Positions 23,552 to 62,966 of a stretch of DNA of 64,000 nt are shown piece after piece (within the stretch, counting starts at the first letter, position 1; each line of letters begins with the position of its first letter). The stretch covers positions 2,115 to 66,114 of the forward strand of contig DASWKB010000024.1 in assembly GCA_036396895.1 (NCBI GenBank). The letters are read 5' to 3'. The position numbers and the translations under genes were made by a program. Origin of the DNA: a bacterium (lineage in GTDB: Bacteria; Omnitrophota; Gorgyraeia; Aquiviventales; Aquiviventaceae). The notes under the pieces were generated by a model that saw only the letters and a program-made list of their open reading frames with translations, ran no database searches and had not been told where the DNA came from.

Positions 23552-23870
23552 GGGCGGGGTCCCCGGACGCGGACCGGAGTTCCGGCCACGTCGTCGCCGA
23601 TCCGGCAGCCGTCATCCACCGTCGAGTGGCTCCAGATCCAGCAGCGGTCCCCGATGACCGTCTCGTCCCGGACTACGACGTGGTGGCCCGACTCGCACCG
23701 CCCGCCGATATCGGTCTCACCATGCACGACCGTCTCGCTGCGCAGCCGGGCTCCCCGGCCGATCTTTGCCGGCTCTCGCGCGATCAGCCGGCCGGATGCG
23801 ACCCCGAGCTCGACGCCTTCGCCAATCACGCACTCGGGCCCCACCTCGACCCATGGTGATGTCCTTGCTG
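23548..23870 (-). CDS. left-handed beta-helix (hexapeptide-repeat) acyltransferase, unusually short
   Basis: Hexapeptide-like periodicity in IGEGVELG, IGRGARLR, IGGRCESG, IGDRCWIW, CRIGDDV. Only 107 aa from the ATG at 23870. Confidence 0.55.
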
Positions 23871-23889
23871 ACGTGCTCATTGCCGCTCG

Positions 23890-23979
23890 TGCCAAATTCG
23901 AAATTGGGAGTTCGGAATGCGAAATTGCATGTGCGGATCTGATATTCCGCGTTCCGCATTCCGCATTCCGCATTTGGCA
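23890..23979. repeat. inverted hepta-1 arrays forming a hairpin
   Basis: tgccaaattcgaaattgggagttcggaatgcgaaat, loop of about 18 nt, attccgcgttccgcattccgcattccgcatttggca. Confidence 0.85.
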
Positions 23980-24003
23980 AGGTTCATGCTCGGCTCACGT
24001 CAC

Positions 24004-24024
24004 GCGCCCCTCGCCCCGTGCCCC
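24004..24024. repeat. hepta-4 tandem array (NNGCCCC orientation)
   Basis: gcgcccc-tcgcccc-gtgcccc, immediately downstream of the DegT-family stop. Confidence 0.75.
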
Positions 24025-24026
24025 GT

Positions 24027-46084: not shown

Positions 46085-48120
46085 GTCTCGAACAGCCGGT
46101 CCCAGCGCTCCATGACCGGAAACACCCGCAGCCGCCGCCATCCCGGATGATGCAGCATGAGCGGCGCCGCATCCGTCAGCTGGCGGACCCACCACATGAA
46201 CACAAGCGGCTCCCGCCACGCCTGATTGAGGCCGAGCCGGTCGAGGTGATCCGCCCACAGCGCCGCAACCGGCCCATCGAGAAACATCTCAGGGTAGCCC
46301 GGGAACTTCACCCCCGCGGGGTCGATGCCGCGCGCGCGCAGCGCGGCGGTCACGTCGGGGCGGAACGCGCATCCGAGGAACGTCACCGCGTCCAGCCCCG
46401 GCAGTCCCTCGGGCTCGAACAGCTCCCAGTCATGGACCGACAGCAGCCGCCCGCTCCCGCGTTCGACCAGGCAGTTCTCCGGCACGAAGTCGCCGTGCCT
46501 CGGCGCAACACGAATCGGCAGCCCCAGCATGCGCGCGCGCATCCAGGCGAGCCGGTCCTCGAACCATCCTCGCCGGCGGTCCCACTCCTCGGCGGTGAAC
46601 CACATCCTCAGCGACGCGACCGGCTGCGCGACGGCGCGCTCGAAGGCCCGCTCGTCCATCGGGCGCATCCCGCCGGGGACCGCCGCGCTCAGCGTTTCGA
46701 GGAATTCAAGCGCGTCCGCGCACAGCCGCCGGCGCGTCCGCATGGACCGGATCACGTCCCCTCCGCCGGATCCGCTCGCGCAGAGTTCCACGCCGTACAC
46801 GAGTCCGTCGTGCTCGCCCACTCGTTCCGCCTGTGGCAGCCGCGAGGCCACGAGCTCCGGCCACACCCGCGCGCGCATCCACTCCAGGGCGTCATGATGA
46901 GCCCGGATCCATCTGCCCGCCTGCGGGACGAGGCCGATGCGGACGATTCGGCGCGGCCCCCGCCGCGGGCGCACGCGCACGACCGCCTTGCCCGTTGAGG
47001 TCACGCGGAAGAGCGCGCCGTCCAGCCGCCAGTCCCCCCCGCCGCCGCACGCGCGCCGCAGCACGCCGAGAAGCGGGGACTCCCGAGGCACCCGCGAGCC
47101 GGTGATGCCGAACGCCGGCGCAAACCATCGTCCCGGCCGCCGCGCAGCCGGGTGCCGACTCGACACGGGCGTCTCCGGGCGCGCGTCCGCCGGCCAGACC
47201 GCGACGATCGAGCCGTAGTGCGGCCAAGTGACGTACCAGCGCCCCCGGTCGAATCCCGCCTGCTGCAGCAGCTTCCGGTACCCCCGCACGCTGTACGTGT
47301 ACTGCCGGAACGGCGTTCCGCGGCGCCGCCTCAGGTACCAGTCGGTCACCGCCCGCGGAAGGAGCGCCGCGAAGCGCATCCGGACGTGCCCTTCCGGCAC
47401 GCCGAGGAAATATTTGTAATTGATGCGGTTCTCGATGCCGATGTAGACCGAGCCGTCAGGACGCAGGACCCGGGCCACTTCGCGAAGAAAACGGCGCTGA
47501 ATGTCTTCAGGGTCCCCCTCCGCGTGCGTGGCGATCCACTCGAACACGCCGTTCAGAATGACGGTGTCGAATGACTCATCCGGGAACGGCAGAGCCGCGC
47601 GCTCGCCGCCCTGAACGACGCGGAGCGTCTCCAGGCCCCGTTCGCGGGCCGACCCGCGAACCCACCGCACGTGCATCGGCGCCTGATCCAGCGCGGTCAC
47701 GAGCGCGCCCCGCTCTGCCAGGTGCAGCGAGATCGTGCCCCACCCGCACCCGACATCCAGCACCCGCGTCCCGGGCCCCGTCTGCACGAGGAGCTCAAGC
47801 GCCAGGCGGCGCACCCCGAGCGTACGCTGCCAGATGAGCTCGGCTTCCCGCAGCGGCACGTCGTCGCAGAGGCGGAACATGGCATCCCGCCATCCGAGCA
47901 CGTCGGCTTCGTGCGCCATGCGCGCCATCCGGGCGGCCGGCACTCCCCAGTCGAACACGCGCGAGGGCTCCCCGAACATCGGCACCCCGTCTGCGACCGG
48001 ATAGATCCTGGCGCATCCGGCGCAGGTCAACGACGCCGCGTCGTCCCAGGCCACGGCGCCGTGGCAGGACGGACAGGCCAGCTCAGTTGGCGAGAACGGG
48101 TTCAGCGAGGTCTCGAGCAT
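46066..48120 (-). CDS. WbdD-like bifunctional protein: Trm112-like zinc ribbon, SAM methyltransferase and APH/protein-kinase-like phosphotransferase
   Basis: CPSCHG...CAGCARIYPVADGVPMF, VLDVGCGWGT, then HGDFVPENCLV and VHDWE kinase catalytic motifs. Confidence 0.75.
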   Translation of the reverse strand: MLETSLNPFSPTELACPSCHGAVAWDDAASLTCAGCARIYPVADGVPMFGEPSRVFDWGVPAARMARMAHEADVLGWRDAMFRLCDDVPLREAELIWQRTLGVRRLALELLVQTGPGTRVLDVGCGWGTISLHLAERGALVTALDQAPMHVRWVRGSARERGLETLRVVQGGERAALPFPDESFDTVILNGVFEWIATHAEGDPEDIQRRFLREVARVLRPDGSVYIGIENRINYKYFLGVPEGHVRMRFAALLPRAVTDWYLRRRRGTPFRQYTYSVRGYRKLLQQAGFDRGRWYVTWPHYGSIVAVWPADARPETPVSSRHPAARRPGRWFAPAFGITGSRVPRESPLLGVLRRACGGGGDWRLDGALFRVTSTGKAVVRVRPRRGPRRIVRIGLVPQAGRWIRAHHDALEWMRARVWPELVASRLPQAERVGEHDGLVYGVELCASGSGGGDVIRSMRTRRRLCADALEFLETLSAAVPGGMRPMDERAFERAVAQPVASLRMWFTAEEWDRRRGWFEDRLAWMRARMLGLPIRVAPRHGDFVPENCLVERGSGRLLSVHDWELFEPEGLPGLDAVTFLGCAFRPDVTAALRARGIDPAGVKFPGYPEMFLDGPVAALWADHLDRLGLNQAWREPLVFMWWVRQLTDAAPLMLHHPGWRRLRVFPVMERWDRLFETWAGVA

Positions 48121-49927
48121 CCGACTTCTCCGGCATCGCGCCGGTCACAAACGCCTCCAGGATCGCCAGGCGCACGGCGATCAGCTGCCAGCCGTGCTCT
48201 GACCGGCGCGCCCACACGGCACGCGCGGACGCGGGATCGACGCCCGGCGGGCGCGGAGGGCGCTGCGGTCCGTCCGCCAGAAGCCGCGCGGGCGGATACA
48301 TGAAACCCGACTTCGGGAATTCCGTCAGCCGCGAGGGCACGTACCGCGCAAGCAGGCGCCGCAGCACCGATTTCTGTCCGAAGGCCGCGAACGCGCGCTG
48401 ATCCTCCGCCGAGACGGTTTCGAGGAGCGCCCGGCTCAGGAACGGCGTCCGCACCTCGAGGCTTGCGCGCATGCTCCCCCGCTCCATGGCGGGGATGTAG
48501 CTGCCCGGCATGGTGCAGTCGAGATCGAACTGTCTCGCCGCAACCATGAGCGGCTGCCGCGAGTCGGGAAACCAGCGCTGGGCCATCGTTTCGAATCCCG
48601 GCTGAGTCCGCAGCCACGGCGCCGTGCGTCCGTGTTTCACCGCCAGCACGCGGGCAGCATCGCCGGCGCCGAGCAGCGCCGAGGCCGTCCTGAGCGTCCC
48701 GGACCGCGCGAGCGGCCCGCGGACCATGCCGCCGAGCGCCTGCCTAAGCGCCGCGGGCAGGGCCAGGGCCGCGCGCATGCGATAGAGCACCTGATAGCGC
48801 CCGTACCCGTAGAAGAGCTCATCGCCGCCCATGCCGCACAATGCGACCGTCATGCGCGACACCGCCGCCGAGGCGATCTGATGCACGGACGCCGCCGTCA
48901 GGTTATCGTTCAATTCCCCGTACAGCGCGAGCACCGATGCGCCCGAGGCGCGGAACCGCTCCGCACGGCTGTCCACGATTTCGTGCGGCGTCTCGAGATG
49001 CCGCGCGATCGCCGCCGCGCGCGCCGACTCATCCCGGCCGTCCGGAAACGCCACGGTCAGCGCCAGCGGGCGCAGCTTCAGCTCCCGCACGGCGAGCGCG
49101 GCCACGAGGGCGGAATCGACGCCCGCCGAGAGAAAGATGCCCAGCGGCACGTCGGCGTACACCCGCCGCCTGAGCGACGCAACGAGCGCGTCTGCGATCC
49201 GGTCCAGCGTCCGTTCCGGCAGCGGCCGAACGGGGCCGCGCCCCCAGAGCGGCTCAGGCGCCCGCCAGTACCGCCGCCGGCTGACGAGGGCCCCGCGTTC
49301 GATGACGACGTGCATCCCCGGGCCCAGCCGCTCCAGGCCCGCGTACCCCGTCCCCGGCGGCGGCACGAAGCCCAGGCACAGGTACGCCGTCGTCTCCTCG
49401 GCCGACAGGCGCTTCGGCAGGCCGAGCCGCGCCGCGAGCGGCCCCGGTTCCGATGAGACATGGACGCCCTCGGGCGTTTCGGCAAGATACAAGGGCTTCT
49501 CCCCGAAGGGGTCCGTGACCAGGTGCACCCGGCGCCCGTCGAAGAGCGCGAACGCCATCATGCCGTCGAAGCGCTCCAGCGCCTCCGGGCCCCAGCGCCG
49601 CCATGCCTCCAGGACGACTTCCGTGTCGCCCGTCGTCGAGCAGCGCACGCCCTGCGCGGCCAGCTCCTCACGGAGCTCGCGGAAGTTGTACAGCTCGCCG
49701 TTGTACGCGAGCGCCCAGCCGTCGCGCACGAACGGCTGGCGGCTTGCAGGCGACGGGTCGATCACGGCGAGGCGGGCGTGCCCGAACACGACGCCCGAGT
49801 CGCGGTCGGCCCATTCGCCCGCATCGTCCGGCCCCCGATGGCGCAAGGCGGCGATGCCCGCGCGCGACGCCCTGAGGTCCGCCTCCTCGAGCGGACGCCT
49901 GAGCATGAGGCCCACGATCCCGCACAT
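48083..49927 (-). CDS. asparagine synthase-family glutamine amidotransferase (AsnB-type), copy 2
   Basis: MCGIVG from the ATG at 49927, GELYNF, and SAGVDSA PP-loop. Confidence 0.9.
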   Translation of the reverse strand: MCGIVGLMLRRPLEEADLRASRAGIAALRHRGPDDAGEWADRDSGVVFGHARLAVIDPSPASRQPFVRDGWALAYNGELYNFRELREELAAQGVRCSTTGDTEVVLEAWRRWGPEALERFDGMMAFALFDGRRVHLVTDPFGEKPLYLAETPEGVHVSSEPGPLAARLGLPKRLSAEETTAYLCLGFVPPPGTGYAGLERLGPGMHVVIERGALVSRRRYWRAPEPLWGRGPVRPLPERTLDRIADALVASLRRRVYADVPLGIFLSAGVDSALVAALAVRELKLRPLALTVAFPDGRDESARAAAIARHLETPHEIVDSRAERFRASGASVLALYGELNDNLTAASVHQIASAAVSRMTVALCGMGGDELFYGYGRYQVLYRMRAALALPAALRQALGGMVRGPLARSGTLRTASALLGAGDAARVLAVKHGRTAPWLRTQPGFETMAQRWFPDSRQPLMVAARQFDLDCTMPGSYIPAMERGSMRASLEVRTPFLSRALLETVSAEDQRAFAAFGQKSVLRRLLARYVPSRLTEFPKSGFMYPPARLLADGPQRPPRPPGVDPASARAVWARRSEHGWQLIAVRLAILEAFVTGAMPEKSDARDLAEPVLAN

Positions 49928-49929
49928 CC

Positions 49930-51753
49930 TCACGACCCCCTGAAGAACTCGTTCAGCGTCACCACCGTCGCCATGAGATCGCCGCCGCCCGCGGGCGCCT
50001 CGAGCCGCCGCTCGAGATCCGCGCCCAGCACGGCGAGATCCAGAAACGGCGCGTGCGCGGCCAGCACCTCCGAGCGCGCGGCGTCACGGACGGCCCGCCG
50101 CAGGCGGGGATCCTCGCGGAACAGGCGGTCGCGGTCCGGCCAGGTCCGGTCCGCCGCCTGCGGGTGCCGCGCGCCCCGCAGCCGCCGCCAAGCGTGCGCC
50201 GCGGTCAGCGACAAGGGCGAGCTGTCGATCCGGAGCCCCGTGTTCGCGCTCGGCAGCGCGGCCAGTCTCGCATCGAGCCGCCGGAGCGCCCGGCGCAGCA
50301 CGCGCGCCGCAAGCCGGTACCGCTCGGGCATCGAGAGGTACAGCGCGAACACGTCGTTGTCGAACGTGAGCGTGCGCTGCTCGCCGCAGGTGCCGATGCT
50401 GGACACGTTCGGGTTCGTGTAGTGCCGCGAGAGCGCGTGCATCAGCAGGTACTCCCACAGGTCGAAGGGCGTGCGCGCCCACGGGCGCGCGCGCGCGATG
50501 ACGTCCTCGACCGACTGCCGCAGCGCATCCGTCAAGCGGGCCCTCCAGGCGGGACGGACATAGCGCAGCAGATCCGTCCGCTTGAGCCGGTAGCTGATCC
50601 GGCGCAGGAACGCCTCCGCGAGATCGCCGCGGGGCGCCTCGAGCCGCCGGATGAACGTCCGGCGGCCGAACGCCTCCAGATACCGCACAGGCAGATACAT
50701 GCCCTGGAACATGTAATCCAGCCCGTGGCCATGCAGCACGACGTCGGCGAGCGGCGCGACCTGATCGCGCAGGCCGAGAAACAGCGCGTGGTCGAACGCG
50801 TACATGCCTCCGCAGAGCTTCGACGCGTCATCCAGGATGCGGCCGTAGTGGCCGACCGGAAGGACGATGAGCGTGTGCGGCGCCCCGCGAGCCGCGGCCA
50901 CGGTCCGCGCGATCTCGCCCTCCCGGTTCTCCGAAAACGCGACCGTCACGCATGAGACCGTCCGCGCCCCGCAGGCCGCCAGCACCGTGCGCGTGTCCAT
51001 CCCGCCGCTGAGGAACAGGCCCAGCCGCGGCCCGTCGCTTGTCTTTCGCTCAAGCGCCCGCGCCAGGCGCCCGATCAGCGCGTCGGCCGCCGCGTCGAGC
51101 GACGGGTAGGCCGTCTTCGCGAAGTCGGGCCGCCAATACGCTTCGAGCGTCGTGGCGGCCCCGTCTGCCGTCAGCAGCGTCGCCGCAGGGAGGAACCGAG
51201 AAGCCGAATCATAGGTCTTCTCCCCCAGCAGGCGCTGCAGCCACATGAACTCGAAAACCGACTCTTCCCGGGTCCGCCTGGCCCCGGCCTCGCCGAGCGC
51301 GAGCCACAGATCGGCATAGGCAAGCGAGCCCAGCAGGCGCTCTCCCAGCCGCGCGTAGTAAAACGGGATGGAGGCGTACCGGTCGTTCACGACGCGAAGG
51401 CGCCGCCGGGTAAGGTCCGCGTGCACGATGAGAAACTCGCCGTTCAACTCCGCGAGGTCCCGCGACGGATGCTCACGCGACAGGAACCACCGGGCGGCGC
51501 CGGCGCGGTCGATCCGCTCTCCCAAGACGGGATTGCCGAATACCAGGACGACATCCGTCCCGGCTTCGACGATCGCGGGCGCGGGCCGGCACCCGCGCCA
51601 GTGCATCGCGAGCCCGCCGGCCGGCCGGGGCCAATCGCCCCGTTCGACGATCTCAACCTCCGCGCCCGCGGGGGACCAGCCGAGCTGGACCTGCGGGCGA
51701 AGCACGTGCGTGTCAGGTCGCGCAGGCGCGCCGGCCTCCGCCGTCGTGATCAT
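49930..51753 (-). CDS. AsnB-like synthetase-domain protein lacking the N-terminal Cys nucleophile, copy 3
   Basis: SGGMDTR PP-loop and glutaminase-domain remnants (NGEFLIV, NDRYASIPFYY), but it starts MITTAEAG. ATG at 51753 forms an ATGA overlap with the ABC gene stop. Confidence 0.75.
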   Translation of the reverse strand: MITTAEAGAPARPDTHVLRPQVQLGWSPAGAEVEIVERGDWPRPAGGLAMHWRGCRPAPAIVEAGTDVVLVFGNPVLGERIDRAGAARWFLSREHPSRDLAELNGEFLIVHADLTRRRLRVVNDRYASIPFYYARLGERLLGSLAYADLWLALGEAGARRTREESVFEFMWLQRLLGEKTYDSASRFLPAATLLTADGAATTLEAYWRPDFAKTAYPSLDAAADALIGRLARALERKTSDGPRLGLFLSGGMDTRTVLAACGARTVSCVTVAFSENREGEIARTVAAARGAPHTLIVLPVGHYGRILDDASKLCGGMYAFDHALFLGLRDQVAPLADVVLHGHGLDYMFQGMYLPVRYLEAFGRRTFIRRLEAPRGDLAEAFLRRISYRLKRTDLLRYVRPAWRARLTDALRQSVEDVIARARPWARTPFDLWEYLLMHALSRHYTNPNVSSIGTCGEQRTLTFDNDVFALYLSMPERYRLAARVLRRALRRLDARLAALPSANTGLRIDSSPLSLTAAHAWRRLRGARHPQAADRTWPDRDRLFREDPRLRRAVRDAARSEVLAAHAPFLDLAVLGADLERRLEAPAGGGDLMATVVTLNEFFRGS

Positions 51754-53609
51754 CGCGCGGCCGTCTCCTGCGCCGGCAAACCCGGATCCGACCAGCCCAT
51801 CACCCGCGCGTACCACTCATCGCCGCGCATCAGCGCCTCATGCGTCCCTTCCTCCACCAGCCGCCCCTCTTCGAGCACCACGATGTACTCCGCCTGGCGA
51901 ATGGTCGACAGCCGGTGCGCGATGACGATGATCGTCGTCCGGCGGTCCCGCCGGAGCGCTTCGAGGGAGGCCTGGATGCTGCGCTCGGTCTCCACGTCCA
52001 GCGCGCTCGTCGGCTCATCCAGAATCAGAATCGAGGCGCCTTTCAGGAGCGCACGCGCCAGCGTAATGCGCTGGCGCTGCCCGACCGACAACCGGGAGCC
52101 CCGTTCCCCGAGCGGCTCGCCGTAGCCGCCCGGCAAGCGCCGGATGAACTCGTCCGCGTGTGCCTGGCGCGCCGCCGCCTCCACCTCGGCGTCCGCGGCT
52201 TCAGGACGCTCATAGCGGATATTGTTCGCCACGGTGTCGTCGAACACGATCCCCTCTTGCGGCACGAACGCGATCCCGCGCCTGAGGCTCTCCAGCGAAT
52301 ACTCCGAGAGCGGCGCCCCGTCGGCGCTGATCATCCCCGAGACGGGCTCGATCAGCCGCGGAATCAGATCGATGAGCGTGGACTTACCCGCGCCTGAGGG
52401 GCCCACGATGGCGATGAGCTTCCGGGCGGGCAGCCGGAGCGTCACCCCGTGCAGCGCGTCCCGGTCGGCGCCGTCGTACCGGAACCGCACGACCGAGAAG
52501 TCCAGCTCCGCATCTAACCCCAGGAACGCCCGCGCGCCTCCACGGATCGTCGGCGCCGTCTCCACCCGGCTGATGAGGCGACGGACGTGATCAAGACTGG
52601 GCCCCCAGCTGGACATGGATTGCCTCGCGTGGATGGCGTCGCGAATGAGCGGCACCACCCGCACGATCACGAGACAAAACAGCGCCACCTCCGCCAGCGA
52701 GAGCGCGAGCCAGGTAGTCGACACCGTCAGCAGGCCCAGCGTGGCCAGCACGGCGATCGGCTCCGCGAGCGCCTGAATTTTCGAGCCCATCAGCGCCACC
52801 GCGATCTTCCGGTCCCGCAGGCCCGTCACGGTCTCCGACAGGCGTTCCGCCTCCGCGCGCTCCCGGCCCGCAAGCTTGATGAGCCGCAATCCGCTCAACC
52901 GCTCGACCAGCGCGTGCGCCAGCAGCCCGTTCAGCTCGGCCACCTGTTCGCCCTGCCGCCGGCTCCAGGCCATGAGCCACCGCACGAAGAGCTGCGCCGC
53001 CAAGACGCCGAATCCAACGACGAGCGCCGCCGGGGGGGCGACGGCGCACAACACCGCCGCGTACACGGCCACCAGCGACCAGATCGAGGCCAGATCGATG
53101 AAGAACAGGAGCGCCGTGCCGGCCCGTTCAGCGTCCATCGTCAGCGCCGCCACCAGAGTGCCGACTCCCTGCCGCTCCGCGAACCGGAAGTCCGCCTGCA
53201 CCGCGGCCGCGAATCCCCGCTGCTGAAGCCCCGACACCACCCCCTCCTTGAGCCGATAATTCAGCCTCTGCCTGAGGTAGCTGCACCCCTGCCGGCCCAT
53301 CGTCAGAACGAACACGAGCCACAGCAGGTTGGCCAGGGTGAGCGGCATCTGCACGCGGTCAAACAGGCCTGTCAGCGTGCGCCAGAGCAGCGAGCCTCCG
53401 ACGGCGCCAGGATCGCCGCCCGCCTGCATCAGCTCAAGCACGGGCAGGAGCATTGACACGCCCGCGCCCTCGAACATGGCCGTGACAAGACTCAGCACAA
53501 CCAGAAGCACCAGACTCCGCCAAGAGACGCCGAGCCAGCGGAGATGGCCGAAAAAGGAGCGTGGCTCAGCTCGCGACTTCACATACGCGTGCCGCCGCCG
53601 CTCAGACAT
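51750..53609 (-). CDS. fused TMD-NBD ABC exporter (MsbA/PglK-type)
   Basis: Six N-terminal hydrophobic spans, GPSGAGKST Walker A, LSVGQRQR signature, ILILDEPTSALD Walker B. Confidence 0.9.
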   Translation of the reverse strand: MSERRRHAYVKSRAEPRSFFGHLRWLGVSWRSLVLLVVLSLVTAMFEGAGVSMLLPVLELMQAGGDPGAVGGSLLWRTLTGLFDRVQMPLTLANLLWLVFVLTMGRQGCSYLRQRLNYRLKEGVVSGLQQRGFAAAVQADFRFAERQGVGTLVAALTMDAERAGTALLFFIDLASIWSLVAVYAAVLCAVAPPAALVVGFGVLAAQLFVRWLMAWSRRQGEQVAELNGLLAHALVERLSGLRLIKLAGRERAEAERLSETVTGLRDRKIAVALMGSKIQALAEPIAVLATLGLLTVSTTWLALSLAEVALFCLVIVRVVPLIRDAIHARQSMSSWGPSLDHVRRLISRVETAPTIRGGARAFLGLDAELDFSVVRFRYDGADRDALHGVTLRLPARKLIAIVGPSGAGKSTLIDLIPRLIEPVSGMISADGAPLSEYSLESLRRGIAFVPQEGIVFDDTVANNIRYERPEAADAEVEAAARQAHADEFIRRLPGGYGEPLGERGSRLSVGQRQRITLARALLKGASILILDEPTSALDVETERSIQASLEALRRDRRTTIIVIAHRLSTIRQAEYIVVLEEGRLVEEGTHEALMRGDEWYARVMGWSDPGLPAQETAAR

Positions 53610-55248
53610 CCCGCGCCCCGTTCATCAACAAGCTGTCCGCCAGCGCGCGGTCCGGTTCGGTGACCGGTCCGTGCAAGCTCGCCGCCAGCCGGTCAAAGTC
53701 CGCCTGGAGCCGGTTGTTCTGATCGAACGCGGCCGGGACGATGGTGCAGCGCCGCGCCGCCAGCGCGCGTGCGTCCTGATGCCACGGATGCCGTCCGTGG
53801 TCGACCCAAACCACCGGTTTGCGCGTGCAGAGCGCGTGCGCGAATGCCGTCGTTGCCAAGTAATCGAACACGAACGCGTCCGCGTCGTTCCACGCGGACT
53901 CGAACGCGTCGTATCGAAATTCGCACTGGTCGATGTACCGCAGCGGACGCCCCTTCAACAAGCCTTCTGGATGCGGCTTGCAGATGACGCGGAATCCCGC
54001 CCCGCAGAGGGCGCCGACCAGCCTGGCCTGCCAGTCCAGGTACGCCATATCGTCGAGTAGGAGCAGGTTGTTCACCTGCTTTTCTCCGCGGAACACGGTG
54101 GGGACGTACATCACCGTGCGCACCCGATCCGGCTTCGCCCGCGCCCGCTCGCGCATGATCAGCGAGCGAAGCGGATGCCGGCTTCCAGGCGCGGGACCAC
54201 GAACGACGGGGGGCCGCAGTCCGAGCGGCCACTCCGCCGCATCGCGCTGGTACAGGGAGGCCGCCGCGTCCGTGTAGGCCACGAACTCATCGGCCCAGAG
54301 CCCGTCCATGTAGTACAGCGTGCGCGTCTGGTGGAGCGCCCAGGCGCTGGACCCGCCGTGATCAAATCCGGTCACGCTGCCGCCCTGGGCCCGGGTGACC
54401 GCGCGGGCGATCCGCACCCAGTAGTGGCCCCCGCTGCCGGTCCACAGCTCGCGAGGCCACGTGCGCTCCCAGCGCCGCGTCACGTTCATGAGGTCTCGCG
54501 CCGCCTGCTCAAGCAGCCGCTCCGTCAGCGCACGCACGTACTCACGCAAGGGCGTTCCTGCCTTCCAGCCGCGCGCGCTGAGCACCTCAGCCAGCATGGA
54601 CGCCAGACGCTCGCCGAGCTCCGTCACCTTCGGAGGATCCTCCCCGCGCGCCTGGGTCATCAGCGCTTCCGGACCCAGGCAGTACACGGCGCGCGCGCGC
54701 GAGGCCAACTCCGCCCGCAACAGGTCATTCGGCGCAAGGACGCACACCGTCTCCGGCCCGTCGATCCGGCGTGTCAGCATCCCGCGGAGTCCGCCCCATT
54801 GAGCTTGCCGGCCGACACGCCGGATGATGCGTTCGATCCGCGTCCCCGGCCCCGTTCGCCGGCCCCGCTTGAGGTGAAGCGGCGCCACCCCGTCCCCGTA
54901 CGGAACGCCTCGCTCGGCGAGTCCGCGCAGCATCGGATACTCATCGGACAGCACGAGGCGCTGCCCGCGTTCGCGCGTGCGCGCGATGAGTCCGCAGCCT
55001 TGCGCGAGCGAAAGGTATTCCACCAGCAGCCACTTCAACACGACGATCGCAGCCGTCCGGAGATCCGGCTCGCGGCACTCTTCCAGAACCCTGATCAGCC
55101 CACGCTCGATGGCGTCTTTCAGCGCCTCGACTTCTTCCATCGACATCGGCCAGCTGAACAGCGCCGACTCATACGGCAACGCCGCCGCGAAGAGGCTCGC
55201 GGGCACATCGCGAGTATCGCGCTGCGTCAGCGTTGCCGTCTCGCTCAT
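53602..55248 (-). CDS. hypothetical protein (candidate glycosyltransferase)
   Basis: 548 aa from the ATG at 55248 (ATGA overlap with the pseI stop). No family recognised. Contains VICKPHPEG and FVFDYLATTAF near the C-terminus. Confidence 0.6.
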   Translation of the reverse strand: MSETATLTQRDTRDVPASLFAAALPYESALFSWPMSMEEVEALKDAIERGLIRVLEECREPDLRTAAIVVLKWLLVEYLSLAQGCGLIARTRERGQRLVLSDEYPMLRGLAERGVPYGDGVAPLHLKRGRRTGPGTRIERIIRRVGRQAQWGGLRGMLTRRIDGPETVCVLAPNDLLRAELASRARAVYCLGPEALMTQARGEDPPKVTELGERLASMLAEVLSARGWKAGTPLREYVRALTERLLEQAARDLMNVTRRWERTWPRELWTGSGGHYWVRIARAVTRAQGGSVTGFDHGGSSAWALHQTRTLYYMDGLWADEFVAYTDAAASLYQRDAAEWPLGLRPPVVRGPAPGSRHPLRSLIMRERARAKPDRVRTVMYVPTVFRGEKQVNNLLLLDDMAYLDWQARLVGALCGAGFRVICKPHPEGLLKGRPLRYIDQCEFRYDAFESAWNDADAFVFDYLATTAFAHALCTRKPVVWVDHGRHPWHQDARALAARRCTIVPAAFDQNNRLQADFDRLAASLHGPVTEPDRALADSLLMNGARDV

Positions 55249-56351
55249 GCGGCCTTCCGCGACCCGGCTGTCTCGCCAGCCCCGGATCCCGTCACGAGGT
55301 CCCACGTCAAGGGTGTCCCCCGCGCGATGTCCCGGCTCGCCCTCCGGCCGAGGATCTGCCGCAAATAGCGCGGCGCGAGGCCCGCGCCTGGACGGATCGA
55401 GCGGACGTTGCGTGCCGTCAAGGCCTCCCCCGCCCGGACCGCCTTGACGACGAAGAGCGACCGCCGGAACACCCGGCTCTTGGACTCCTCAGGTCCCGGG
55501 CCGAACCGGGAGCTGCCGAGCGCGCGCTCGACCTCGCGCACCGCGTCGACCATGCGGCGGAACTCCTCGGGCGTTTGCGAAAACGCCTGATCCGCGCTCG
55601 GGGCCTCGCGCGAGAGCGTCAAGTGCTTCTCCAACATGCACGCGCCCAGCGCAACCGCCGCCACCGCGGCCGTCGCCCCAAGCGTATGGTCCGACAGTCC
55701 GATCGGAACCCGAAAGGTTTCGGCCAGCGTCCTGATGGCTCTCAGATTCATTTCATCCGAAGGCGCCGGATACGCGCTGGTGCACTTGAGGAGCGCCAGC
55801 GGCCCGGCACCAGCCCGGGACGCCGTTTCGACCGCCTCGGTGATCTCCTCGATCGTCGCCATGCCCGTAGACAGGATCAGCGGTTTGCCCGTGCGGGCGA
55901 GGCGCTCAATCAGCGCCAAATCCACCAGCTCGAACGAAGCCGCCTTGTGAATCGGAACTCCCAGCCGCTCCAGAAATTCGACGGCGGACTCGTCGAACGC
56001 GGTCGAGAAGCAATCGAGCTCCTCCTCTACCGCCACGCGCATGAGCTTCGGATGCCACTCCCATGGGGTCGCGGCGTCCGCGTAGAGCTCGTACAGCGTC
56101 CGGCCGTCCCAGAGCGTCCCGCCGGCGATCTTGAACGGGGGCGCGTCGCAGCAAATCGTCAGCGTGTCCGGAGTGTACGTCTGCAGTTTGATCGCGTCGG
56201 CTCCGGCCGCTTTGGCCGCGCGGACGATGCGCACGGCGGTGTCGAAGTTGCCGCCGTGGTTCGCCGACATCTCTGCCACGATGTACGTCGGGCGGCCGGG
56301 TCCGACCTTCCGGCCGTTGATCTCGAACTCCCGCACCGGCTCGCCGTTCAC
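55245..56351 (-). CDS. pseI: pseudaminic acid synthase (NeuB family with C-terminal SAF domain)
   Basis: YIVAEMSANHGG, AIKLQTY, YELY...TPWEWH, HKAASFELVDL, GKPLILSTGMAT. Confidence 0.88.
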   Translation of the reverse strand: MNGEPVREFEINGRKVGPGRPTYIVAEMSANHGGNFDTAVRIVRAAKAAGADAIKLQTYTPDTLTICCDAPPFKIAGGTLWDGRTLYELYADAATPWEWHPKLMRVAVEEELDCFSTAFDESAVEFLERLGVPIHKAASFELVDLALIERLARTGKPLILSTGMATIEEITEAVETASRAGAGPLALLKCTSAYPAPSDEMNLRAIRTLAETFRVPIGLSDHTLGATAAVAAVALGACMLEKHLTLSREAPSADQAFSQTPEEFRRMVDAVREVERALGSSRFGPGPEESKSRVFRRSLFVVKAVRAGEALTARNVRSIRPGAGLAPRYLRQILGRRASRDIARGTPLTWDLVTGSGAGETAGSRKAA

Positions 56352-57112
56352 GAGCGTCCTTGCTCCTCGTCTCCGTACTCAAGCCCCAGCGACAGATACA
56401 CCCGCCGGCCGCCGACCTCGATGAACGCCCCGCGGAAGGGTGGAAAGGTCCGCGCCCGAAGGATATTGAGCAACTCGCCCGCGGCGTACTGCCGGGTGAC
56501 GTCAATGCGGTCCATCGCGTCCACGTCCCGGATTCGGTGCGTCGCGCCGATGCCTGCCGGCTGAGGCGTGCGAGGTGCCCGGCCGTCTCGGATGGCCGGC
56601 CACAGCTCCTGGAACAGCTCGACCGACGCCCGCTCGAGCCTCCGGTAAAGCGTTTCGCCGGTGTCCACGGGCTCCACGGCCACGACCCGCTGGGCGATCA
56701 GGTCTCCGGCATCGAGGCGATCATCGACGTAGTGCAGCGACACCCCCGCAGGAGTCCCCTCGATGATGCTCCAGACGTTCGGGTACGCCCCCCGGTTATG
56801 CGGCAACAGCGATGGATGCACATTGATGACGCCGGCGGGAAACCCGCGCAGGAGTTCCCGGCTCAGGACGTACCCGAACATGAGCGACACTCCCAAGTCG
56901 GGTTTGAGCGCGAGCACGGCGTCTCTCACCTCGGGCTGAGCAAGCCGGGACCCCTCGAAGACGGCCTCCCGGGGCACCCCGGCAGCCTTGAGGATCTCCC
57001 GGACGTGCCGCTGCCGCTCCGGCGGGTGAATGACCACGGCCGCGATGTCCTCTTCGCGCTCCCGCAGCCATCCGACAATCTGCCAGCCGACCCAGTTGTT
57101 CGCGAAGCACAC
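56348..57112 (-). CDS. Fmt-like sugar N-formyltransferase
   Basis: VINVHPSLLPHNRG and SLHYVDDRLDAGDLI. Start is a GTG at 57112. An in-frame ATT at 57121, 8 nt after a GGAGGG, would give xRIVCFANN. Confidence 0.8.
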   Translation of the reverse strand: MCFANNWVGWQIVGWLREREEDIAAVVIHPPERQRHVREILKAAGVPREAVFEGSRLAQPEVRDAVLALKPDLGVSLMFGYVLSRELLRGFPAGVINVHPSLLPHNRGAYPNVWSIIEGTPAGVSLHYVDDRLDAGDLIAQRVVAVEPVDTGETLYRRLERASVELFQELWPAIRDGRAPRTPQPAGIGATHRIRDVDAMDRIDVTRQYAAGELLNILRARTFPPFRGAFIEVGGRRVYLSLGLEYGDEEQGRS

Positions 57113-57136
57113 GATGCGAATCGCAGGATCCCTCCG

Positions 57137-58183
57137 TTACCGCGAGCCGTTGGCCAGCTCGGCCGCCACGTGCGAGGCGCCTTCCCCCGACACGAGCGCC
57201 CGCCCTCGGGCCGACATCCCGCGCCGCCGCGCCGCATCCCCCAGAAGCGCGCCGGCCGCCCCGGCGACGGCCTCGCCGGTCAGGGTGTCCGCCAGGCCCA
57301 GGTTCAGCGCGACGCCGGCCGCCTCCAGCCGCTCCGCGATCGGCGCCTGGTTCTCCGCCAGCACGATGAGCGCGGCCGGGAGACCCATGAACGCGAGCTC
57401 CCACACGGTGCTGCCCGCGGCCGACACGGCGAGGTCCGCCCACGACATCAGCTCCGGCATCTTCGCCGGCTGCCGCTCGAGGCGCACGGCGGCCTTCGCG
57501 CCCTTGGAGAAGCGCTCAAGCTCCGCCGCGTGCGGATTGGCCGGACCGGCGACCGCCACCGTTTCGAGACGGCCCGGCAAGGCCTCGAGCGCTTCCAGAA
57601 CCCTCGCGGTGACGTTGTCCGGATCCCCGCCCCCCATCGTGACCAGCACGCGCGGCGTCCGGGCGGGGAACTCCCGCGTCCATTCGTTCCACTGAAGGAA
57701 CTCCCGCCGCAGCAGGGCGTATTGCGGCCCCAGCAGGAGGCGGGTGTCCGGCTCCCGGGCCGCGTACAGCGACTCCTCGGCGTGCGGGTTCTGGTTCAGT
57801 ACCACGTGCGCGTAGTAATGCTCCGCGTGGCGGCCGTCATCGATCACGAGCAGCCGGAACCGGCTGCGCCGGATCGCGAGCTGATAGGCGCTGCCGAAGC
57901 GGTAGCCGTCGGCCACGATCCAGGCCGCGCCTGCGCGCCGGGCCGCGCCGATGGTGAGCTTCGCGTCCTCCGGGTCGCCCGGTTCGGCGGGCATGGCCGC
58001 GACCGGAATCCCTTCGCGGATGAACCGGGTCCGGACCGCCTCCGGCACCGCGGCCGCCAGGAGCGCCGCCCCCCCGCCGTGGTGACGCCACGCCTGCGCG
58101 AGCGCCAGGCACCGCATCAGGTGCCCGGTGCCGATCGCGGCATTCCCGTCGGCGCGGATGAGCAGCGCGGGCGCCTTCGCCAT
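57137..58183 (-). CDS. pseG: UDP-2,4-diacetamido-2,4,6-trideoxy-beta-L-altropyranose hydrolase
   Basis: LLIRADGNAAIGTGHLMRCLALA N-terminus and C-terminal AAGSTVWELAFMGLPA. Start placed at MAKAPALL (58183). Confidence 0.8.
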   Translation of the reverse strand: MAKAPALLIRADGNAAIGTGHLMRCLALAQAWRHHGGGAALLAAAVPEAVRTRFIREGIPVAAMPAEPGDPEDAKLTIGAARRAGAAWIVADGYRFGSAYQLAIRRSRFRLLVIDDGRHAEHYYAHVVLNQNPHAEESLYAAREPDTRLLLGPQYALLRREFLQWNEWTREFPARTPRVLVTMGGGDPDNVTARVLEALEALPGRLETVAVAGPANPHAAELERFSKGAKAAVRLERQPAKMPELMSWADLAVSAAGSTVWELAFMGLPAALIVLAENQAPIAERLEAAGVALNLGLADTLTGEAVAGAAGALLGDAARRRGMSARGRALVSGEGASHVAAELANGSR

Positions 58184-58184
58184 G

Positions 58185-58920
58185 CTAGACGGGCTTCTGC
58201 GCCACGTGGGCGTTGAGCCGGCTCCAGTCGGGATGCGCCGCCAGCACCTCCAGGACGTCCCGCCACTCGAACGTGTCGCGTCCGAAATGCCCGTAAATCC
58301 GCCGGAGGAGCTCCAAGTCATCGGCGGTGTCCACCGTCCAGCGGTGTCCCGAGTGATCGTCGCCCAGGCGGACCGGCACCAGCGTAAAGCGCTCCGGGTG
58401 ACGCCAGATGTAGGGCGTCACATGCTCCCGCCAGGCTGGATCGCGGTCCTCTTCCCAGGCGCGACGCAGCGCCCCCGCGGCGATGACTTCCGTGTCGAGC
58501 CCGCGCGGAAACGTCCGCGGCGGCAGGATGTTGCTCGCGTAATCGGCCGCGCCCGAGCGCCGGAACTCCCGCACCACCAGGTCGATCACGCCGGGGTCGA
58601 TCATCGGGCAGTCCGCCGTCACGCGCACGACGGCCGATGCCCGCAGCGCGAGGGCCGCCTGGTAATAGCGGTCCAGCACGTCCGCCTCGCTGCCGCGCAC
58701 GCACGTCCATCCGCGGGACGCGCACAGCGCCGCGACCGGGTCGTCCTGCGGCGCGAGCGTCGTCGCGACGCACACGCCGTCCACGCGCGCCGCCCGCGCG
58801 GTCCGCGCGACGACACGCGCCAGCATCGGCTCACCCGCGAGATCCTTCAGCACCTTGCCCGGCAGCCGCGCGCTTCCCATGCGCGCCTGAATCACGGCGA
58901 CGACGCGCATCCTCGCTCCC
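58185..58920 (-). CDS. SpsF/PseF-type nonulosonate cytidylyltransferase
   Basis: MRVVAVIQARMGSARLPGKVL and RVTADCPMIDP. The Arg-rich 5' extension in the track is rejected. Confidence 0.78.
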
Positions 58921-59554
58921 GCTTCCTGAGCAGAAACATCGCGTCCTCGAGCGGCTCCGTCCGGTACGGAAGCCGCTCCTCCCGCACGAGCTCCAGATCC
59001 GGGCAGGCCGCGCGGTACAGCGCCGCGTAGTCCGCCTTCCAGAGTAAATTCGCGCGGCCCCGGTAGGGCACGCCGGTCAGCTCCGGCGCGAAGTACTCCA
59101 GCCCCAGAATGCCGCGGCGCGAACAACGGTGGATCTCGCGCATCGCCGTCGCGAGATCCGCCGGAGCCAGATGGATCAGCACCCCGGAGGTGAACACCAG
59201 ATCGAAGGACCCGTCCCGGAACGGCAGGCCCGTTGCCGAGCCCTGAATCAGCGTGACACCCGGCAGGCGGCTCCGGGCGCGCGCGACCGCGTACGCCTGC
59301 AGCTCGATCCCGTAGAGCCGGGTGAATCCCTGCCGCCTGAGGCACCCCAGCTGAGTACCCACGTTCGTGCCGACTTCCAGGATCCGGGCCCCGCGGTCGA
59401 CGCCGTCCAGGAACCGCGCGTTGAGCGCGCTGCGCGTGACTCCGTAGCGCGACTCGTACATCGCGTCCAGCTCCTCAATCGTGAGGTCGTTCCGGTCGGT
59501 GTACGACCGGCCGAACGGGCCGCTCCACACGGCGGCCTGCGGCGTCTCAGGCAT
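58892..59554 (-). CDS. pseudaminic-acid-biosynthesis-associated methylase-like SAM methyltransferase
   Basis: ILEVGTNVGTQL and DLVFTSGVLIHL. Its position between pseC and the cytidylyltransferase matches the Pse-associated methylase family. Confidence 0.72.
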   Translation of the reverse strand: MPETPQAAVWSGPFGRSYTDRNDLTIEELDAMYESRYGVTRSALNARFLDGVDRGARILEVGTNVGTQLGCLRRQGFTRLYGIELQAYAVARARSRLPGVTLIQGSATGLPFRDGSFDLVFTSGVLIHLAPADLATAMREIHRCSRRGILGLEYFAPELTGVPYRGRANLLWKADYAALYRAACPDLELVREERLPYRTEPLEDAMFLLRKRERGCASSP

Positions 59555-60719
59555 CGCGGCTCCTCCCGCTCGGCGCCGGGCGCGGCGCGAGCCGTTCCAG
59601 CGCCGAGACGACGCGCCTGATGTCCCCATCCGTCATGCCCGGAAACATCGGCAGCGATACGATACGCTCGTAGGCGGCCTCCGCGGCCGGACACAAGCCG
59701 GGCCCCGTGCCCAGGCGCGTCCGGTACAACGGCTGCAGGTGCACCGGAATGTAGTGCACGTTCACGCCGATCCCCTCCTCATGAAGCCGCCGGAAGGCTT
59801 CCGCCCGGTCCAGGCCCAGCCGGTCCCGGTCGAGCCGGACGACGTACAGATGATACGCGTGCTCGACGCCGGGCCGGACCTCGAGCGGCGCGATCCCCTC
59901 AAGCGTCCCGCAGGCGCGGTCGTACGCCGCGGCGACGGCGCGCCGGCGGGCGAGACTCGCCTGGAGCTTCGCGAGCTGGCTCAAGCCCAGCGCGCACTGG
60001 AAGTCCGAGATCCGATAATTCAGGCCGGGCTCGGCGATCTCGTACACCCACGTGCGCGCCGCCAGGCGGCGGTGCGGATCCGCGTCGATGCCATGGTTGC
60101 GGAAGCGGCGCGCGCGGGCCGCCAGCGCCTCGTCGTCCGTGACCAGCATGCCCCCTTCCCCCGTCGTGATGTGCTTCGCGGGGTGGAAACTGAACGCCGT
60201 CGCGTCGGCGAGCGTCCCCACCGGGCGCGCCGCATCGGACGCGCCCAGCGCGTGGCAACCGTCCGCCAGCAGGCGGATGCCCCGCTCCGCCGTGACCGCC
60301 CGGAGCCGCGCGTAGTCGCACGGCTGACCCGCGTAATCGACGGCGATCACCGCTTTGGTCCTCGGCGTCGCCCGCGCCGCCACGCTCGCGGGGTCGATAA
60401 GCAGCGTCTTCGGGTCCACGTCCGCGAACACGGGACGGGCGCCCTGCAGCAGCACGACCGTGGCCGTCGAGGCGAACGTGATCGCCGGCACGATGACCTC
60501 GTCTTCCGGCCCGATCCCCAGCGCCGCCACGGCCGCGTGGAGCGCGGCAGTCCCGCTGGAGACCGCGACGCCGTGCCGCGCGCCGGTCCGCGCCGCCACC
60601 GCGCGCTCGAACCGCTCAATCAGCGGGCCGCCGGTCAGCCAGGCCGACCGCAGCGCCTCCGCCACCGCGGCGGCGTCCGCGTCATCGATCGAATGCCGCG
60701 TGTACGGCAACAGGTCCAT
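59547..60719 (-). CDS. pseC: UDP-4-amino-4,6-dideoxy-N-acetyl-beta-L-altrosamine transaminase
   Basis: [46 protein letters not shown]. The ATG at 60719 overlaps the pseB stop (TGATG). Confidence 0.88.
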   Translation of the reverse strand: MDLLPYTRHSIDDADAAAVAEALRSAWLTGGPLIERFERAVAARTGARHGVAVSSGTAALHAAVAALGIGPEDEVIVPAITFASTATVVLLQGARPVFADVDPKTLLIDPASVAARATPRTKAVIAVDYAGQPCDYARLRAVTAERGIRLLADGCHALGASDAARPVGTLADATAFSFHPAKHITTGEGGMLVTDDEALAARARRFRNHGIDADPHRRLAARTWVYEIAEPGLNYRISDFQCALGLSQLAKLQASLARRRAVAAAYDRACGTLEGIAPLEVRPGVEHAYHLYVVRLDRDRLGLDRAEAFRRLHEEGIGVNVHYIPVHLQPLYRTRLGTGPGLCPAAEAAYERIVSLPMFPGMTDGDIRRVVSALERLAPRPAPSGRSRDA

Positions 60720-61777
60720 CACGCGTCGCTCAGGCACGGCTCCGAGAGACCCAGCAGGTCCCGCAGCTCCTCGGGGGTCAGCCGCGCGGGATTCGTGTCG
60801 CTCGCGTACCGGAATCCCGGCGGCAGCGGACGCCCGTCCGTCCAGCGCTCGCTTCTCCACCACGCGTGCGCCGGGCGGATGACGTACATGTCGTCCAGCT
60901 CCACGGCCTGCCGCGCCTCGTCCTCCGAGACCAGGACTTCGTGGATCTTTTCCCCGGGCCGGATCCCGATTTCCTCGATGCGGCAGTCCGGCGCCAGCGC
61001 TTTGCACAGATCAAGAATGCTCATGCAGGGGATCTTCGGCACGAAGATCTCCCCGCCGTGCATCGACGTCAGGCAGCGGATGACGAAGCGGACGCCCTGG
61101 TCGAGCGTCAGCCAGAAGCGCGTCATGCGCGGGTCCGTCACCGTCACCGTGCCGCCGGCCCGCTGGGCGAGAAACAGCGGGACGACGCTGCCGCGGCTGC
61201 CGACGACGTTGCCGTACCGGGCGCACGCGAAGCGCGTCCCGCCGGCGCCGGCGTAGGCGTTGCCCTGCACGAAGAGCTTTTCGGCGCACAGCTTCGTCGC
61301 GCCGTAGAGGTTGATGGGGTTCACCGCCTTGTCGGTGCTCACCGCCAGGACCCGCTTGACGCCGCAGTCGATCGCGGCGTCGATCACGTTCTTCGCCCCG
61401 ATAATGTTCGTCTGCACGGCCTCGAACGGGTTGTACTCGCACGCCGGCACCTGCTTGAGCGCCGCCGCGTGCACCACGAGGTCCACCCCGTGCATCGCCC
61501 TCCGGAGCCGATCAAGATCGCGCACGTCGCCGATGAAGTAGCGCACCGGCGATCCGGGGCCGTCGGGCACGCGCTGGCGCATCTCGTGCTGCTTGAGCTC
61601 GTCCCGGCTGAAGATGATCAGCTTCTTGGGGCGCGCGGAGGCCAGCACCGCCTCCGTGAACTTCTGCCCGAACGATCCCGTGCCGCCCGTGACGAGGATC
61701 GTCGATCCGTCCAACGACAAGGATTCGCGCATTGTCTCCGTCCCTCCCGGCGCCTGAGGCCCTCGCCGGGCGCTCAT
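60719..61777 (-). CDS. pseB: UDP-N-acetylglucosamine 4,6-dehydratase (inverting)
   Basis: [36 protein letters not shown]. Start at 61777 (ATGA overlap) or 61732. Confidence 0.9.
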
Positions 61778-62712
61778 GTCCGCTCCAGTTGCGTGCGAAA
61801 CCACGCGATCGTCTTGGTCAGCCCCTCCGCGAGGGCGGTCTTCGGCTGCCAGCCGAGCACCCGCGACGCGGCGCCGATATCGGGGCAGCGCTGTTTGGGG
61901 TCGTCCTGCGGCAGCGGCCGCGATTCGATGCGGCTGGGGCTCTTCGTCATGCGGATGATCTCCTCCGCGAGCTGCCGCACCGTGTACTCCCCTGGGTTGC
62001 CGATGTTCATCGGCTCGTCGTAGTCGGAGTGCATCAGCCGCACGATCCCTTCGATGAGATCGTCCACGAAGCAGAACGAGCGGGTCTGGCTGCCGTCCCC
62101 GAACACCGTCACCGCCTCGCCGCGCAGCGCCTGGGTGATGAACGCCGGGATCGCCCGCCCATCGTGCATTCTCATTCTCGGCCCGTAGGTGTTGAAGATC
62201 CGGACAATGCGCGTATCCACGCCGTGGCTGCGGTGATACGCCATCGTGAGCGCCTCGGCGAAGCGCTTCGCCTCGTCGTAGACCCCGCGAGGGCCGACGG
62301 GGTTCACGTGCCCCCAGTAGGACTCCGGCTGCGGGTGGACCTGGGGATCGCCGTAGACTTCCGAGGTGGACGCCAGGAGGAACTTCGCGCCCTTGGCCTT
62401 CGCCATGCCGAGCGTGTTGTGGGTGCCCAGCGCGCCGACCTTGAGCGTCGGGATCGGGTGCTTGAGGTAATCGATGGGACTCGCCGGCGAGGCGAAATGC
62501 AGGATGAAGTCGATGGAGCCGTCCGGCGTGTACGGGCGGCTGACGTCATGGACGACGTGCGTGAAGCGCGTCTGTCCCAGGAGGGCGGCGATGTTGTCCG
62601 GGTTGGCCGTGATCAGGTTGTCCACGCAGATGATCTCGTGGCCGTCACGATGCAATCGCTCGCACAGGTGCGAGCCGAGGAACCCGGCTCCGCCGGTAAT
62701 GAGCATCCGCAT
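61774..62712 (-). CDS. UDP-glucuronate decarboxylase-like SDR (UXS family)
   Basis: [35 protein letters not shown]. Confidence 0.9.
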
Positions 62713-62966
62713 CAGGTGGCCTCCAGGAGTGGCATGGCCGGCTGCACGGCCGGCTTGGGATCGGGGGCCCGCTTCAACAGGAAGATTCCCCGGTGCTTGT
62801 GCTGACGCCGCCGGATGAACCCCTTGCGCTCAAGGGCGGTCAAGCGGTCGATGGCTGACTTGTAGGAGACGATGCGGCAGCCGGCCTGGACTTCCCGGAT
62901 CAGCGGAGCCCGGCTGTGCTCGCGCACGTAGTCCTCGATAAATATCAGGACACTGCGCTGTTTCAT
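62712..62966 (-). CDS. stand-alone LexA-N-terminal-type winged-helix DNA-binding protein
   Basis: 84 aa. [45 protein letters not shown] parallels the LexA DNA-binding domain. No S24 peptidase domain. Its stop overlaps the start of the next gene. Confidence 0.6.

Follow-up and report, generated by a model that had tools for sequence, protein, structure and literature searches.

Which enzyme modifies the 4-amino group of the nucleotide sugar when a pseudaminic acid (Pse) gene cluster carries a formyltransferase gene in the slot where pseH or pseJ would be expected? The question is raised by the Pse module of a 64,000-nucleotide stretch of DNA from an Omnitrophota bacterium (assembly GCA_036396895.1, contig DASWKB010000024.1, positions 2,115 to 66,114 of the forward strand), which was analysed at its full length and is hereafter called the window. 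An initial annotation, made from the letters of this DNA alone, had claimed seven genes in a row (pseB, pseC, a Pse-associated methylase, a cytidylyltransferase, pseG, a formyltransferase and pseI), no GNAT-type PseH anywhere in the window and a formyltransferase that takes the step of PseH, leading to a 7-N-formyl Pse derivative. We consider it probable, at roughly 0.75, that the product of this operon is CMP-5-acetamido-7-formamido-pseudaminic acid (CMP-Pse5Ac7Fo), with methylation as a possible further modification, destined for a secreted or lipopolysaccharide (LPS)-type polysaccharide. The use of a formyltransferase in place of PseH is in itself already established (PseJ, 2018) and is not new here; the window system is well supported as a PseJ-type CMP-Pse5Ac7Fo pathway with a sister, long-form formyltransferase.

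The Pse operon and the absence of PseH from the window

Gene identities were assigned by the NCBIfam curated cut-offs, including the TIGRFAM/NCBIfam Pse models, and by Pfam scans of the called open reading frames (ORFs). All seven genes were found on the minus strand between positions 55245 and 61732, in the transcription order given above, and PseB, PseC, PseG and PseI all four exceeded the curated equivalog cut-offs. The inverting UDP-GlcNAc 4,6-dehydratase gene pseB (60719-61732) scored 482 bits with TIGR03589 (cut-off 408) and carries PF02719, while pseC (59547-60719), coding for the pyridoxal phosphate-dependent aminotransferase expected to produce UDP-4-amino-4,6-dideoxy-beta-L-AltNAc, scored 426.9 bits with TIGR03588 (cut-off 423.5) and carries PF01041. 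The UDP-sugar hydrolase gene pseG (57137-58183) reached 214.6 bits with TIGR03590 (cut-off 154), and the pseudaminic acid synthase gene pseI (55245-56351), with NeuB and SAF domains, 458 bits with TIGR03586 (cut-off 340). Between pseC and pseG are located a Pse-associated S-adenosylmethionine (SAM) methyltransferase (58892-59554; TIGR03587, 170.7 bits with a cut-off of 112.05; PF08241) and an SpsF-like cytidylyltransferase (58185-58910; PF02348, CTP_transf_3, 1.7e-27). The latter is presumed to be the CMP-Pse synthetase, in the role of PseF, and scored 23 bits with the PseF model TIGR03584, against a cut-off of 205.7. The long-form sugar N-formyltransferase (56348-57112), a protein of 254 aa, INVHPSLLPHNRG, combines PF00551 (2.2e-27) with PF18216 (1.3e-13, residues 196-246). 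The genes follow each other with overlaps of 1-19 nt or gaps of at most 41 nt, which indicates one operon; in particular, pseC and pseB overlap by 1 nt and the start of pseI overlaps the formyltransferase stop by 4 nt. Independent gene calls deposited in ENA for the same contig agree with the operon genes.

No member of the Acetyltransf (GNAT) families was found by Pfam scans in any called ORF of the 64-kb window. A custom PseH hidden Markov model (HMM), built from ten positional PseH domains taken from metagenome loci anchored on the methylase (see below) and run on the window and 88 related loci, gave no match at E<=1 in the six-frame translation of the window, and the same model did detect PseH-like GNATs in other loci. 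The claim that the window is devoid of a GNAT-type PseH was thus confirmed by both searches. The NCBIfam PseH cut-off (93.1 bits) was dropped as a test for PseH, since GNATs clearly in the PseH position, either fused to PseG or located between PseG and PseI (e.g. L130, 3055-3522, and L155, 3752-5269; loci L089-L168), score only 36-47 bits; the model is too strict for environmental sequences, so that most environmental PseH proteins will go unnoticed in automated annotation. A GNAT domain fused to the window PseG is also lacking, as indicated by its length of 348 aa compared with about 500 aa for PseG-PseH fusions. The window encodes a single acyltransferase, a hexapeptide (LbH) protein (23548-23973) beside a second DegT aminotransferase (24027-25202). 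This LbH acetyltransferase was considered as a substitute for PseH and judged unlikely, being located 30 kb from the module and adjoining its own DegT aminotransferase.

The long-form formyltransferase and its relatives

A housekeeping fmt, with the Formyl_trans_C domain, is located separately at 2828-3808, beside def (2828-4251 for the pair), so that the enzyme of the cluster is an additional formyltransferase, of the sugar type. Its catalytic triad (N97, H99 and D134) was invariant in an alignment of 23 family members. The AlphaFold2 (AF2) model was predicted with a pLDDT of 90 and a pTM of 0.87, and its Foldseek matches were the 4-amino-sugar N-formyltransferases Rv3404c, ArnA N-domain, WbtJ, VioF and WbkC (E 3e-19 to 1e-15, TM-scores 0.74-0.81; top entries 5vyq, 4pzu, 4nv1 and 4yfv). 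When the PDB sequences were searched, Rv3404c matched with 104.8 bits, with the C-terminal domain included, and an entry named 'formyltransferase PseJ' with 101.8 bits over the catalytic core only. No NCBIfam family reached its cut-off, the best match being NF005755 (dTDP-4-amino-4,6-dideoxyglucose formyltransferase) with 124.7 bits against a cut-off of 238.

The PseJ/CMP-Pse5Ac7Fo pathway of Anoxybacillus kamchatkensis/ayderensis was reportedly reconstituted by Reimer et al. in 2018 (ACS Chem Biol) as far as the step at which the UDP-4-amino sugar is formylated, and they are also said to have solved structures. The PDB entries of PseJ are 6ci2, 6ci4, 6ci5 and 6edk. PseJ is named as the formyltransferase of the Pse5Ac7Fo pathway in a passage of PMC11040635 that cites Reimer et al. 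2018. When the PseJ core was used as query, the PDB protein (P0121) was retrieved together with a large family whose members are about 192 aa long and carry PF00551 only; PF18216 was absent from all 120 PseJ relatives listed. The order pseB-pseC-CTP_transf_3-pseG-pseJ-pseI was found in an Anoxybacillus genome (L085) and in a Desulfobacteraceae metagenome-assembled genome (MAG; L086). Over the query core of 128 aa, the PseJ homologue of L085 (P0125) and the PDB PseJ share 89% identity (85% by tblastn), and identities between the window and L085 were 64% for PseB, 45% for PseC, 45% for the cytidylyltransferase, 28% for PseG and 50% for PseI.

Over the shared core, identity was 59-65% within the clade of long-form enzymes, which includes the window protein, and 40-48% between this clade and the PseJ family; for Rv3404c and WbtJ, identity to the window protein was 37% and 32%, respectively. 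In a neighbour-joining tree of the shared core, which is a rough one with few outgroups and no bootstraps, the long-form clade was placed as sister to the PseJ clade, both being apart from Rv3404c/WbtJ and from Fmt. The window formyltransferase is presumed to be a functional analogue and sister of PseJ, N-formylating the 4-amino group introduced by PseC.

The long form is widespread, with 1,798 database matches at E<=1e-5. The best 120 of these were 52-61% identical to the window protein (the identical entry aside), had the same two-domain architecture and were either without a name or labelled 'methionyl-tRNA formyltransferase'. A pattern scan of species-representative genomes gave 106 relatives, and the synteny counts refer to the 80 loci that were retrieved, all of them (80/80) from MAGs and assigned to Acidobacteriota, Planctomycetota, Chloroflexota, Nitrospirota, Myxococcota, Omnitrophota, Gemmatimonadota, Armatimonadota, Clostridia, Elusimicrobia and others. 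Of these 80 loci, 75 carried one or more Pse core genes. Among 77 evaluable loci, the gene directly upstream of the formyltransferase was pseG in 54; the one directly downstream was pseI in 33 of 69, and a cytidylyltransferase was detected in 50 of 80. The complete PseB/PseC/PseG/formyltransferase/PseI set was found in 31 of 80 loci and in 34 when three metagenome contigs, obtained by exact-protein look-up and showing the same gene order as the window, were added; only 3 of the 99 intervening ORFs of these 34 complete modules were GNATs. No sign of co-adaptation of PseI or PseG to a formylated substrate was seen, their identities to the window proteins being similar in formyltransferase loci and in PseH loci.

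In one formyltransferase-containing Pse module (L001, 2606-5078), a WbuX-like N-acetyl-sugar amidotransferase was found together with HisH/HisF-like partners, which suggests that the sugar bears an acetamidino modification in addition to the formyl group.

The TIGR03587 methylase was confirmed in at least 589 metagenome stretches and is typically located between pseC and the cytidylyltransferase, the same place that it occupies in the window. Among the 80 methylase-anchored metagenome loci that were compared, the slot between PseG and PseI was mostly taken by a PseG-PseH fusion or a separate GNAT, and a long-form formyltransferase was present only in L127 and a PseJ-type one only in L110. A specific tie of the methylase to formyl-Pse was therefore rejected, most methylase loci with PseG having a PseG-PseH fusion or a separate GNAT, and the methylase is rather independent of the acyl group at N7. 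The suggestion of the initial annotation that it may modify the formyl derivative further finds no support as a specific role, in view of the same company of PseG-PseH fusions.

Proposed pathway and alternative explanations

In the proposed pathway, PseB and PseC would convert UDP-GlcNAc to UDP-4-amino-4,6-dideoxy-beta-L-AltNAc, whose 4-amino group would be formylated by the 254-aa formyltransferase with N10-formyl-tetrahydrofolate, at the step that in the canonical route is carried out by PseH with acetyl-CoA. UDP would then be removed by PseG, and PseI would condense the sugar with phosphoenolpyruvate, the former N4 becoming N7 of Pse; the product would finally be activated with CMP by the SpsF-like cytidylyltransferase. 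Substrate, formyl donor and final product are proposed by analogy with the characterised PseJ pathway. Tested in vitro, a PseF enzyme had a kcat/Km of 4.85 s-1 mM-1 with Pse5Ac7Fo and of 4.71 s-1 mM-1 with Pse5Ac7Ac (PMC11040635); since it accepts the two about equally well, it is plausible that the activating step tolerates the formyl group. Pse5Ac7Fo is found in nature, e.g. in Pseudoalteromonas distincta KMM 638 (PMC3210612). The earlier proposal of a formyltransferase taking the PseH step, with 7-N-formyl Pse as outcome, is supported by the PseJ precedent, the collinearity with L085, the position as a sister clade, the triad, the fold and the recurrent synteny. CMP-nonulosonic acids with formyl and +14 Da methyl groups were reported in Ca. 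Kuenenia, where the cluster responsible was described as legionaminic-acid-like (bioRxiv 10.64898/2026.04.20.719630). A Pse-like module with a member of the long-form family was found in a Ca. Kuenenia stuttgartiensis MAG (L082, 7115-12875), its gene order differing from that of the cluster described in the preprint; this link lends weak support to the proposed pathway.

Several observations weigh against this reading. Our view is limited to 64 kb of the genome, and a PseH could be encoded elsewhere; the activity of the long-form clade is predicted from sequence, model and analogy. The formyltransferase overall matches Rv3404c and PseJ equally well, and it has kept PF18216, a domain typical of dTDP/GDP-sugar formyltransferases. 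With the custom HMM, a PseH-like GNAT was detected within 10 kb of the formyltransferase in 11 of 88 loci, including L039 (8308-9981) and L084 (1735-3354), in which it is part of a PseG-PseH fusion directly beside the long-form formyltransferase. An AAC(3)-like N-acetyltransferase domain was present near the formyltransferase in at least four loci and, in the three that were checked (L016, L025 and L053), as part of a fusion protein encoded between the formyltransferase and PseI. Since some loci hold both kinds of enzyme, formylation does not in every case simply stand in for acetylation. None of these acetyltransferases (GNAT or AAC(3)) was found in the window.

The fusion protein, of about 715 aa, is composed of an AAC(3)-like (PF02522), a DUF4910/DUF2172 (M28-peptidase-like) and a helix-turn-helix domain. 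It is encoded at 10784-12922 in L016, 10804-12966 in L025 and 11970-14177 in L053, with relatives in L021, L049, L059 and L061, these being loci of Chloroflexota/Acidobacteriota type, and might serve the Pse pathway as an alternative enzyme of N-acyl modification.

The loci with both kinds of enzyme would fit a different division of labour, in which N4 is acetylated by a PseH or some other N-acetyltransferase whose gene lies outside the window and the formyltransferase acts on a different amine, e.g. N5 once it has been deacetylated or that of a further amino sugar in the same polysaccharide. The second DegT aminotransferase and the polysaccharide deacetylase domains of the window speak for this reading, as do the CMP-nonulosonic acids with one formylated and one free amine that were reported in Kuenenia (bioRxiv 10.64898/2026.04.20.719630). 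However, the formyltransferase is translationally coupled to pseI and occupies the PseH/PseJ slot, a position that is kept across many phyla; the module itself has neither a GNAT nor a deacetylase, and the second aminotransferase, 30 kb away, has its own adjoining LbH acetyltransferase. Taken together, we regard acetylation by an enzyme encoded outside the window as unlikely.

The likeness to Rv3404c leads to another explanation, namely that the formyltransferase belongs to the dTDP-sugar enzymes (Rv3404c/VioF-like, with dTDP-Qui4N or similar as substrate), has no more than its location in common with the Pse genes and serves another sugar of the large polysaccharide cluster. Rv3404c is indeed at the top of the PDB matches by both sequence and fold, PF18216 is present and the top NCBIfam match, with about 125 bits, is the dTDP-4-amino-4,6-dideoxyglucose formyltransferase, but this score falls far short of the required 238 bits, PseJ is the closer relative in the catalytic core and no dTDP-glucose pathway genes adjoin. 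The linkage to PseG and PseI, moreover, is very strong over 80 loci from many phyla, and there is only a slim chance that the enzyme serves another sugar. Finally, the gene might be an inactive remnant, with no formylated product arising from the cluster, as could be suspected from its GTG start and from an N-terminus three residues shorter than that of its homologues. This we find hardly credible, as the reading frame is intact, all the catalytic and nearly invariant residues are kept, the fold is confidently predicted and the codon-position GC is typical of the real genes of the window. We thus retain the synthesis of CMP-Pse5Ac7Fo as the most probable function of the operon.

Surrounding genes, significance and comparison with known systems

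The window has a G+C content of about 69% and, as judged from codon-position GC, almost every real gene is on the minus strand. All of it to the right of about 10.4 kb is one very large polysaccharide/LPS-type cluster, with GT1, GT2, GT4 and GT9 glycosyltransferases, a Wzy_C O-antigen-ligase-like protein, many SAM methyltransferases, three AsnB-like amidotransferases and an ABC exporter. Immediately downstream of pseI, with its start overlapping the pseI stop by 4 nt, an orphan protein of 548 aa is encoded (53602-55248, minus strand), for which Pfam and NCBIfam gave no match and the database search only 7 proteins, itself among them. Its AF2 model (pLDDT 75) gave weak but consistent Foldseek matches to glycosyltransferases of the GT-B type, namely BshA, UrdGT2, the teichoic-acid polymerases TarL/TagF and KpsC. 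That it is a GT-B-like nonulosonic-acid transferase or polymerase using the CMP-sugar is plausible but speculative.

The orphan belongs to a block (46066-55248, minus strand) that also includes an MsbA/HepA-like ABC exporter (51750-53477; PF00664 and PF00005), two AsnB-like proteins, one of them without the GATase domain, and a 684-aa methyltransferase/APH-kinase fusion; in this context, the exporter downstream of the module points to a glycan that is exported. Two orphan homologues (L087 and L088) are likewise located near an ABC exporter and an AsnB-like gene. The full block, including the second AsnB and the methyltransferase/kinase fusion, was found in L088 (1017-10123), while in L087 (10001-17229) only the exporter and one AsnB-like gene precede the contig end, and the orphan homologue is downstream of NeuB and CTP_transf_3 genes.

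At the other side of the operon, immediately upstream of pseB, a UDP-xylose-synthase-like short-chain dehydrogenase/reductase (SDR; 61774-62712, minus strand) carries PF01370 and PF16363, its best NCBIfam matches being of the RmlB, UXS and ArnA-C types, all under cut-off. It is preceded by an 84-aa protein with a LexA_DNA_bind domain (61774-62966 for the pair, minus strand), whose stop overlaps the SDR start, and relatives of the SDR were also seen upstream in loci L013 and L054; the two genes hint that the same glycan contains a pentose and that a small regulator is encoded here. Further unusual-sugar genes of the super-cluster are located at 13484-16277 and 23548-25202 (minus strand), and comprise a TylCIII-like sugar C-methyltransferase with a zinc-binding domain, a small cupin, an SDR and the second DegT aminotransferase with the LbH acetyltransferase.

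The PseJ-type route to 7-N-formyl Pse thus does not appear to be confined to a few Firmicutes, a sister family with a dimerisation domain being located in Pse operons of more than 100 uncultured species of many phyla. The known logic of the Pse pathway is left unchanged, and the main value of these observations is for annotation, long-form proteins being now labelled 'methionyl-tRNA formyltransferase' or 'formyltransferase family protein', and for the spread of the route among uncultured bacteria; the clade is also relevant to the prediction of surface-glycan chemistry from metagenomes. A wider proposal, that the long-form clade is a second, environmentally dominant family of Pse N7-formyltransferases and the orphan GT-B-like protein a new pseudaminyl-transferase family, is put forward tentatively, and we consider it rather doubtful. 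If the long-form clade did have this role, formyl-Pse would commonly occur as a sugar on the surface of uncultured Acidobacteriota, Planctomycetota, Chloroflexota, Nitrospirota and other phyla. Reimer et al. are said to have asked by what path a sugar formyltransferase came to be the F domain of a nonribosomal peptide synthetase (NRPS), and this question could be informed too, as the clade may represent the ancestral long form.

When compared with known systems, the window shares PseB, PseC, PseG and PseI with the canonical Pse pathway of Campylobacter/Helicobacter (PseB-PseC-PseH-PseG-PseI-PseF) and differs from it in having no PseH within its 64 kb and an SpsF-like CTP_transf_3 protein instead of a PseF of the TIGR03584 type; the expected product carries an N7-formyl group, whereas that of the canonical pathway is N7-acetylated. 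Rv3404c, WbtJ, VioF, WbkC and the ArnA N-domain have the same PF00551 and PF18216 architecture and the same fold as the window enzyme, and act on the 4-amino group of a nucleotide-linked 6-deoxy or pentose sugar; however, enzymes of the Rv3404c type use dTDP-, GDP- or UDP-Ara4N substrates in other pathways, and their core identity to the window protein is only 32-37%. The closest system is that of PseJ. The window formyltransferase is encoded in the same slot between pseG and pseI, the modules are collinear gene for gene apart from the methylase, which is extra in the window when compared with the PseJ-type cluster of L085, and the two systems have in common the SpsF-like type of cytidylyltransferase, the lack of PseH and the Asn-His-Asp core. 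PseJ itself is a single-domain protein of about 192 aa without PF18216, whereas the 254-aa window enzyme has this domain, a dimerisation hairpin of about 50 residues, and about 30 extra N-terminal residues. With 42% identity to PseJ over 125 core residues, a separate clade and an extra domain, it is not a straightforward PseJ orthologue and is best described as the long-form sister enzyme in an otherwise PseJ-type module.

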